Of a stretch of 64,000 nt of DNA, positions 35,778 to 36,440 are shown piece by piece. Both the position numbers and the translations under genes were made by a program. The first letter of the stretch is position 1, and the number at the start of each line of letters is the position of its first letter. The DNA comes from Escherichia coli (GTDB taxonomy: Bacteria; Pseudomonadota; Gammaproteobacteria; Enterobacterales; Enterobacteriaceae): the NCBI RefSeq assembly GCF_001677475.2, contig NZ_CP015229.1; one strand, given 5' to 3'. The notes under the pieces are model-generated. The model did not search any database and was not told the origin of the DNA. It saw only the letters and a list, made by a program, of their open reading frames with translations.

Positions 35778-36440
35778 ATGTTGCGCATTATCGATACAGA
35801 AACCTGCGGTTTGCAGGGAGGGATCGTTGAGATTGCCTCTGTTGATGTCATTGACGGAAAAATCGTCAACCCCATGAGCCACCTGGTGCGCCCCGATCGT
35901 CCTATTAGTCCACAAGCGATGGCGATTCATCGCATCACCGAAGCCATGGTCGCCGATAAACCGTGGATTGAAGATGTGATCCCGCACTATTACGGTAGTG
36001 AATGGTATGTCGCGCATAACGCCAGCTTTGACCGCCGCGTACTGCCTGAAATGCCCGGTGAGTGGATTTGCACTATGAAACTGGCCCGTCGTTTGTGGCC
36101 AGGGATCAAGTACAGCAATATGGCGTTATATAAAACACGGAAGCTCAATGTACAGACGCCGCCGGGCCTGCATCATCACCGCGCGTTGTATGACTGTTAT
36201 ATCACCGCTGCGTTGCTTATCGATATTATGAACACCTCCGGCTGGACGGCAGAACAGATGGCCGATATCACCGGACGTCCGTCGTTGATGACGACCTTCA
36301 CCTTTGGCAAATACCGTGGCAAAGCGGTTTCCGACGTTGCCGAACGCGATCCGGGCTATCTGCGCTGGTTATTTAATAACCTGGACAGCATGAGCCCGGA
36401 GCTGCGTTTAACACTGAAACATTATCTGGAAAATACTTAA
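35778..36440 (+). CDS. exoX: Exodeoxyribonuclease X (DnaQ-like 3'-5' exonuclease)
   Basis: ORF 35724..36440 trimmed to [15 protein letters not shown] (220 aa); DEDDh exonuclease motifs. Confidence 0.85.

Follow-up and report, generated by a model that had tools for sequence, protein, structure and literature searches.

The window analysed here, i.e., the whole 64-kb stretch of DNA under study, is a segment of the E. coli chromosome that runs from yoaA to cmoB and corresponds to ~1.89-1.95 Mb on the chromosome of K-12 MG1655. It contains exoX, which encodes exodeoxyribonuclease X and occupies positions 35778-36440 on the plus strand, and, facing it, ptrB, which encodes oligopeptidase B and occupies positions 36437-38497 on the minus strand. 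Direct reading places the stop codon of exoX at the TAA in 36438-36440 (plus strand 36429-36440, GAA AAT ACT TAA), and that of ptrB at a TAA that appears as TTA on the plus strand at 36437-36439 (minus strand, CCT GAG GAT TAA). The pair satisfies the definition of the YTAR class, in that two coding genes on opposite strands and with facing 3' ends have exactly 4 nt in common, the tetramer TTAA at 36437-36440, and both stop codons lie inside this convergent overlap. The same overlap is present in K-12 MG1655 (exoX 1926120..1926782, ptrB 1926779..1928839), and the RefSeq annotation of strain KV7, the curated annotation of K-12 MG1655 and the list of open reading frames are concordant on the ends of both genes. 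The overlapping, offset stop codons that a first-pass annotation of this DNA had described at 36437-36440 are thereby confirmed, and its deduction that the 3' ends of the exoX and ptrB mRNAs are complementary stands as a necessary consequence of the overlap.

The coding sequences of the window were obtained by carrying over the KV7 and K-12 annotations by BLAST. Every complete coding sequence transferred in this way has a start codon at its front and a single stop at its end, with yoaA and cmoB being cut by the ends of the window. ExoX matches the NCBIfam equivalog NF005937 with residues 1-219 on positions 1-219 of 220, and PtrB matches NF007511 over 1-685 of 686; ZnuC, ZnuB, YecD, YecE, CmoA, MntP and RlmA likewise show essentially end-to-end equivalog matches, and in all nine proteins residue 1 falls on model position 1. 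The scan covered proteins encoded by complete genes, so that the start of the truncated cmoB rests on the K-12 and KV7 annotations.

A 4-kb query centered on the exoX/ptrB junction found matches in 5425 of 5426 complete E. coli genomes, with 100% identity to strain KV7 only. Compared with the KV7 chromosome (NZ_LT795502.1), the center of the window (~24.5-47 kb) is mostly 100% identical (99.1-100% from yebW to pykA), and the genes in both flanks are 94.8-99.6% identical, a mosaic that suggests recombination blocks. The flanks also differ from KV7 by an IS21 insertion (see below), a 3-nt indel and an element of ~117 nt with putatively ERIC-like inverted repeats (...GTGAACTCCCATGAGCATAGATAACTATGTGAATGGGATGAGCGAAG...); the window is thus not KV7 itself. 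In the window the element, at 58294-58410, separates the stop of aspS from the start of nudB, and K-12 has it as well; KV7 lacks it, and its aspS and nudB are annotated with an 8-nt overlap. Rfam models further identified the overlapping antisense sRNA pair SdsR/RyeA between pphA and yebY (32758-32902) and a cspA-thermoregulator match over cspC/yobF (16810-17270).

Tabulation of the gene junctions in the window yielded 69, among them 46 co-directional and 11 convergent ones. A distance of -4 is found in two of the 11 convergent pairs, exoX/ptrB and mntP/rlmA, and three others are separated by 0 to 3 nt (yebW/pphA, 0; yebB/ruvC, 1; pdeD/yoaE, 3). Coding ends thus lie at most 3 nt apart in five of the 11 convergent pairs, so the exoX/ptrB junction is not unusual even inside these 64 kb. 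Five of the 46 co-directional pairs also lie at -4, namely znuC/znuB, yecD/yecE, cmoA/cmoB, a 40-aa ORF called by PGAP together with mntP, and istA/istB of the IS21 element, and longer co-directional overlaps occur at letA/letB (32 nt) and yoaE/yoaL (13 nt). The compact junctions named in the first-pass annotation are all correct, but its list was incomplete, as it lacked mntP/rlmA, the 40-aa ORF/mntP, istA/istB, letA/letB and yoaE/yoaL. Junctions at -4 exceed chance, but they do so in a known way.

To place the exoX/ptrB junction among its relatives, species-representative genomes were scanned with ExoX, which returned 80 Enterobacteriaceae loci; the ends of both genes could be located in 77 of these, giving, together with the window, 78 junctions. 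exoX and ptrB are convergent in all 78 (the window and 77 species), and 74 junctions lie in the range from -19 to +12. A distance of -4 is seen in 35 junctions, where the shared tetramer is TTAA in 28 (window included), CTAG in three, CTAA in three and TTAG in one; it is -19 in 21, 0 in eight and +2 to +12 in another eight, and six outliers lie at -143, -15, -14, -10, +38 and +258. At the -19 junctions the YTAR tetramer is absent, with exoX ending in TGA or G-TAR, and ptrB continues to its next in-frame stop, formed by Y|TA across conserved exoX His-Tyr codons. The window has this back-up stop of the ptrB frame too, located by comparison and direct reading: it is the TTA at 36422-36424 (read on the minus strand), which spans the His-Tyr codons CAT|TAT. 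The state of the junction follows the context of the exoX stop: an in-frame YTAR goes with -4 in 35 of 35 cases and CTGA goes with -19 in 17 cases. The conserved part of PtrB ends with ...LAQGTLPG and that of ExoX with ...RLTLKHYL, and beyond these points the residues, those of every overlapped codon among them, differ in both number and sequence.

A particular case is the distance of +12 found in three species, Pseudescherichia vulneris and relatives (loci L041, L044 and L064, at ~3650-3680), where GAAAACTAR, the junction motif, is present in two copies with a 16-nt offset. The doubled motif would fit a tandem duplication by which an earlier 4-nt overlap was resolved and each gene acquired a stop of its own. 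In the 78 junctions, the tight abutment of exoX and ptrB is conserved and the exact overlap is not. The length of the overlap toggles with the identity of the stop codon while the abutment is kept, which argues for a by-product rather than a selected signal. We therefore read the exact 4-nt overlap as a probable neutral by-product of the exoX stop codon, with its variability as the ground for neutrality; that 74 of the 78 junctions are strictly without a spacer could reflect selection.

Insertion sequences were also encountered in this neighborhood. Several E. coli genomes, e.g., E. coli 266917_2 (locus L085, 3655-5306), carry ISEc46 (IS200/IS605 tnpA plus TnpB) between ptrB and yebE, and another E. 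coli genome has ISEcp1 in or near ptrB. The possibility that the IS200/IS605 element (ISEc46) splits the exoX/ptrB junction was rejected by its position between ptrB and yebE.

The second convergent 4-nt overlap of the window, that of mntP (plus strand, 15347-15913) and rlmA (minus strand, 15910-16719), consists of a TTAA tetramer with both stops at 15910-15913. Its last mntP codons contain, on the minus strand, a hairpin GCGTCCAG-AGGAT-CTGGACGC (15899-15879) followed by the 3' end of rlmA, a feature that spans 15873-15899 and was delineated from the predicted fold and published 3'-end data (PMC7815308). Term-seq mapped the rlmA mRNA 3' end to MG1655 position 1906214 (PMC7815308, Supplementary file 1), which corresponds to window position 15873, 37 nt inside mntP and just past the hairpin, which has no U-tract; a Rho termination region is reported near this end, at 1906268 (PMC7815308). 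Rho-dependent transcripts have been shown to end at protective stem-loops that lack a U-tract (Dar and Sorek, 2018; PMC6061677), and the rlmA 3' end fits this rule.

Upstream of mntP, the window carries an IS21-family element (12674-15075, between yobD and mntP) that is absent from K-12 and KV7. It encodes a 499-aa IstA-like ORF with a Mu-transposase C-terminal domain (12766-14265) and IstB (14262-15017), which overlap by GTGA at 14262-14265, and its 8-bp target duplication is likely AGTTGTTT. The element lies ~270 nt upstream of the mntP ATG and just upstream of a Mn2+ (yybP-ykoY) riboswitch aptamer at 15125-15215 (score 45.2 bits, gathering threshold 45), which was found by a local scan only and missed by the gathering scan of the whole window. 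The insertion might cut mntP off from the regulatory region that lies upstream of it. Between the aptamer and mntP lies the 40-aa ORF (15228-15350), a 'hypothetical protein' in the PGAP annotation of KV7 and unannotated in K-12, which shares an ATGA with the mntP start at 15347-15350 and could be either a leader ORF or an over-call.

No intrinsic terminator, i.e., a GC-rich stem-loop followed by a U-run within ~50 nt of either stop, was found near 36437-36440 on either strand. A scan of 4 kb for the terminator consensus returned 3 sites against 4.2 expected from shuffles, none of them within 600 nt of the junction on the relevant strand (the nearest matches are 35817-35803 on the minus strand and 38238-38251 on the plus strand), and the folds predicted around the junction are without a U-tract. 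An intrinsic terminator at this site was rejected on the consensus scan and the folds. A hairpin at the exoX 3' end in the plus-strand RNA, with a 10-bp stem GGCGTAGCG...CGCTACGCC, was discarded as well: its z-score is only -1.4, and the 5' side of the stem falls within the PtrB tail, which is variable, and is disrupted even in the closest relative (locus L005). The first-pass annotation had concluded that the overlap leaves no room for a terminator. This holds for the intergenic space, but termination and 3'-end signals can sit inside the coding sequence of the partner, as seen at mntP/rlmA and as described for E. coli, in whose 58 convergent overlaps terminators, where present, lie within the partner's coding sequence (Lillo and Krakauer, 2007; PMC2174442). 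Since the rlmA 3' end lies inside mntP, a more accurate wording is that there is no intergenic terminator and that signals are embedded in the partner gene.

Published transcript data on exoX/ptrB all come from K-12, a strain other than that of the window, and they bear directly on the strand-specific RNA-seq proposed in the first-pass annotation as a check for antisense overlap, which they answer. exoX-ptrB appears in Table 1 of the ExcludonFinder study (NAR 2025; PMC12288877), where it belongs to the 165 convergent excludons that were present in 50% or more of the 58 K-12 RNA-seq samples, as do yebW-pphA and pdeD-yoaE, both also located in the window. Moreover, a bicyclomycin-sensitive Rho termination region was mapped to the plus strand at MG1655 position 1927253, antisense to ptrB (Adams et al., 2021, eLife; PMC7815308, Supplementary file 2), with a Rho score of 6.30 (p 3.4e-10) and with reads in the upstream and downstream 800-nt windows changing from 82/12 without bicyclomycin to 140/129 with it. 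This position corresponds to ~36911 of the window, 471 nt past the exoX stop, and is enclosed by a stretch that, on the exoX strand and thus antisense to ptrB, is rich in C and poor in G (36831-37090, C/G 1.6-2.1). Thus, in K-12 the exoX-strand transcript crosses the junction, enters ptrB in antisense and is ended there by Rho. For the ptrB mRNA, no 3' end is present in the published 3'-end data of PMC7815308 (Term-seq) or PMC10687069, the latter having no entry for exoX either.

The three co-directional overlaps that the first-pass annotation had listed as 4-nt start/stop overlaps are all exact by direct reading and have the same form in K-12, with identical starts for znuB, yecE and cmoB. 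ZnuC is the ATPase and ZnuB the permease of a single ABC transporter, and CmoA and CmoB are consecutive enzymes. All six genes lie on the plus strand, and in each pair the TGA stop of the upstream gene overlaps the ATG of the downstream one. znuC (52320-53075, stop at 53073-53075) and znuB (53072-53857, with the ATG at 53072-53074 and model position 1 at residue 1) share the ATGA at 53072-53075. yecD (60493-61059) and yecE (61056-61874; NCBIfam 1-272 of 272) share that at 61056-61059, and cmoA (62363-63106) and cmoB (63103-64000, cut by the window end) share that at 63103-63106, 6 nt downstream of a Shine-Dalgarno-like motif, AGAGGA. The predicted pairing with the anti-Shine-Dalgarno sequence amounts to -5.7 kcal/mol for znuB (at a distant site), -3.3 for yecE and -5.8 for cmoB (AGAGGA, good spacing), against a window median of ~-6.1; such below-median pairing fits a reliance on coupling, which it does not prove.

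A distance of -4 is the modal distance of co-directional gene pairs in E. coli, and termination-reinitiation coupling was shown to need an overlap or near-overlap and to collapse at a separation of ~20 nt (Huber et al., 2023; PMC10666635). In the same study, overlapped pairs were enriched for subunits of heteromeric complexes. By this general rule, the three ATGA pairs are most likely translationally coupled, with the ribosome that ends the upstream gene re-initiating on the overlapping ATG; cmoB, whose own Shine-Dalgarno motif is reasonable, may also be initiated independently.

Collectively, these observations are very probably accounted for by the ordinary compact junctions of a bacterial chromosome, i.e., a neutral exoX/ptrB overlap together with ATGA operon pairs. 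In this explanation, exoX and ptrB are unrelated, real genes that converge without a spacer. A TAA or TAG that follows a T or C (YTAR) gives another TAA or TAG on the opposite strand, shifted by one base, so that a facing ORF in that frame is closed there and a 4-nt overlap results. When exoX ends in TGA or RTAR (R = A/G), ptrB runs 15 nt further, to the His-Tyr back-up stop. As the overlapped codons encode non-conserved C-terminal tails, the overlap would cost nothing and could toggle neutrally. Given the lack of an intergenic terminator, each transcript would continue antisense into its neighbor, with that of the exoX strand being stopped by Rho ~470 nt inside ptrB, a step shown by the published K-12 data, whereas the way in which the ptrB transcript ends is inferred.

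Other readings of the junctions have to be weighed against this one. That the overlaps are annotation artefacts, produced by wrong starts or by one ORF that is not a gene, is hardly credible: start codons are often mis-assigned, and the ORF list does contain a longer exoX beginning at a TTG, but a convergent overlap is set by stop codons alone, so that no re-assignment of starts could abolish the one between exoX and ptrB. The co-directional overlaps also withstand such a re-assignment, the refuting case named in the first-pass annotation, with ZnuB and YecE aligning from model position 1 and with K-12 starts identical; the full-length equivalog matches, the agreement between curated K-12 and PGAP annotations and the facing arrangement kept in 77 other species all speak against an artefact. 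Another idea is that the spacer-free arrangement of exoX and ptrB has been selected as a functional excludon, in which collision of RNA polymerases and cleavage of the RNA duplex by RNase III would bring about mutual repression and exclusive expression of the two genes. The presence of the pair in the published E. coli excludome and the higher synteny reported there for excludon pairs in general (PMC12288877) are in line with such selection, as is the finding that 74 of the 78 junctions have stayed between -19 and +12 nt. However, ExoX and PtrB are not known to be functionally linked, the exact overlap varies (-4, -19, 0, +12) and one lineage has apparently parted the stops by a 16-nt duplication; a deletion bias combined with no need for a spacer explains the abutment equally well, and no reciprocal expression data for exoX/ptrB were found. 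We thus consider a selected excludon quite improbable.

A further alternative concerns the end of the ptrB mRNA, which might be embedded in exoX. The last 100 nt of exoX contain an imperfect inverted repeat (36343-36408) that, on the minus strand, is predicted to form a long hairpin in the ptrB 3' UTR, 29-94 nt past the ptrB stop, and this hairpin could keep 3' exonucleases from degrading a transcript terminated by Rho, in the way that the mntP hairpin would for rlmA. The 120-nt minus-strand fold reaches -41.3 kcal/mol (z -3.74), with none of 200 shuffles being as stable, and the helix retains 85% of its pair cells over the 78 sequences as compared with 27-42% in slid controls; both the precedent of the rlmA 3' end, located after a hairpin inside mntP (PMC7815308), and the general rule for Rho-dependent 3' ends (PMC6061677) point in the same direction. 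On the other hand, RNAalifold found no consensus structure in the 78 sequences (0 kcal/mol), and column shuffles pair almost as well as the observed alignment (80.1% vs 81.0%) and contain as many pairs changed on both sides (7.9 vs 8). DPGY and MSPE, two conserved ExoX motifs, are encoded in the arms of the repeat, and coding constraint thus suffices to account for the repeat and for the pairing that it retains. In addition, the hairpin lacks a U-tract, and Term-seq places no 3' end there (PMC7815308). Conservation of an RNA structure in the ptrB 3' UTR is therefore not supported, with covariation not going beyond coding constraint, and the embedded 3' end is kept as a low-confidence rival that we hold to be unlikely. 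The combination of the two ideas, i.e., a junction selected through antisense read-through as a functional excludon whose exoX repeat doubles as a stabilizer of the ptrB 3' end, is very unlikely in our view; if true, it would mean that a coding sequence, exoX, carries the 3'-UTR signal of its neighbor, ptrB.

The explanation by ordinary compact junctions is thus preferred, and the exoX/ptrB and ATGA junctions are real, explained and already known. The modest estimate of the first-pass annotation, which had treated them as architecture of little novelty, proved sound, as both classes of junction have been on record for years and exoX-ptrB is named in an excludon list. Beyond careful annotation their importance is small, and they exemplify known rules: a YTAR stop also ends the frame that faces it; genes that converge with no spacer are inevitably transcribed into one another and depend on Rho or embedded hairpins; and ATGA pairs favor coupled translation. 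What the present analysis contributes is a small addition, a comparative series for one gene pair in which the abutment is kept and the length of the overlap toggles.

Among known systems, the closest is the class of YTAR convergent overlaps, for which TTAA, CTAA, TTAG and CTAG are recognized as the four possible tetramers and in which the two stops lie one base out of register within one tetramer (Lillo and Krakauer, 2007, Biol Direct; PMC2174442). exoX/ptrB has the same structure and shows no difference in kind; the addition to this class is a single gene pair that switches between -4, -19, 0 and +12 across Enterobacteriaceae with the identity of the stop codon. Excludons are likewise characterized by 3' transcript overlap, and exoX-ptrB is listed by name among them (PMC12288877, Table 1). 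The transcripts do overlap in K-12 according to this list, and the mutual repression of the excludon model is, for exoX-ptrB, a conjecture. mntP-rlmA has the same TTAA architecture and is absent from the convergent excludons given in that Table 1. In its Rho region past exoX and antisense to ptrB, the junction resembles the Rho-dependent ends described previously (Dar and Sorek, 2018; Adams et al., 2021; PMC6061677, PMC7815308). The rlmA 3' end, located right after a stem-loop without a U-tract, is alike to the stabilized Rho-dependent ends of these studies, with respect to which the ptrB hairpin is a candidate by prediction only. Finally, the three co-directional pairs share with the ATGA pairs of Huber et al. 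(2023; PMC10666635) the tetramer, the operon context and weak or distant Shine-Dalgarno motifs, the pairs tested in that study being other than znuC/znuB, yecD/yecE and cmoA/cmoB. As parts of one ABC transporter, ZnuC and ZnuB match the enrichment for heteromeric complexes reported there, whereas CmoA and CmoB, as consecutive enzymes that are not a known stable complex, are unlike the complexes enriched in that dataset.
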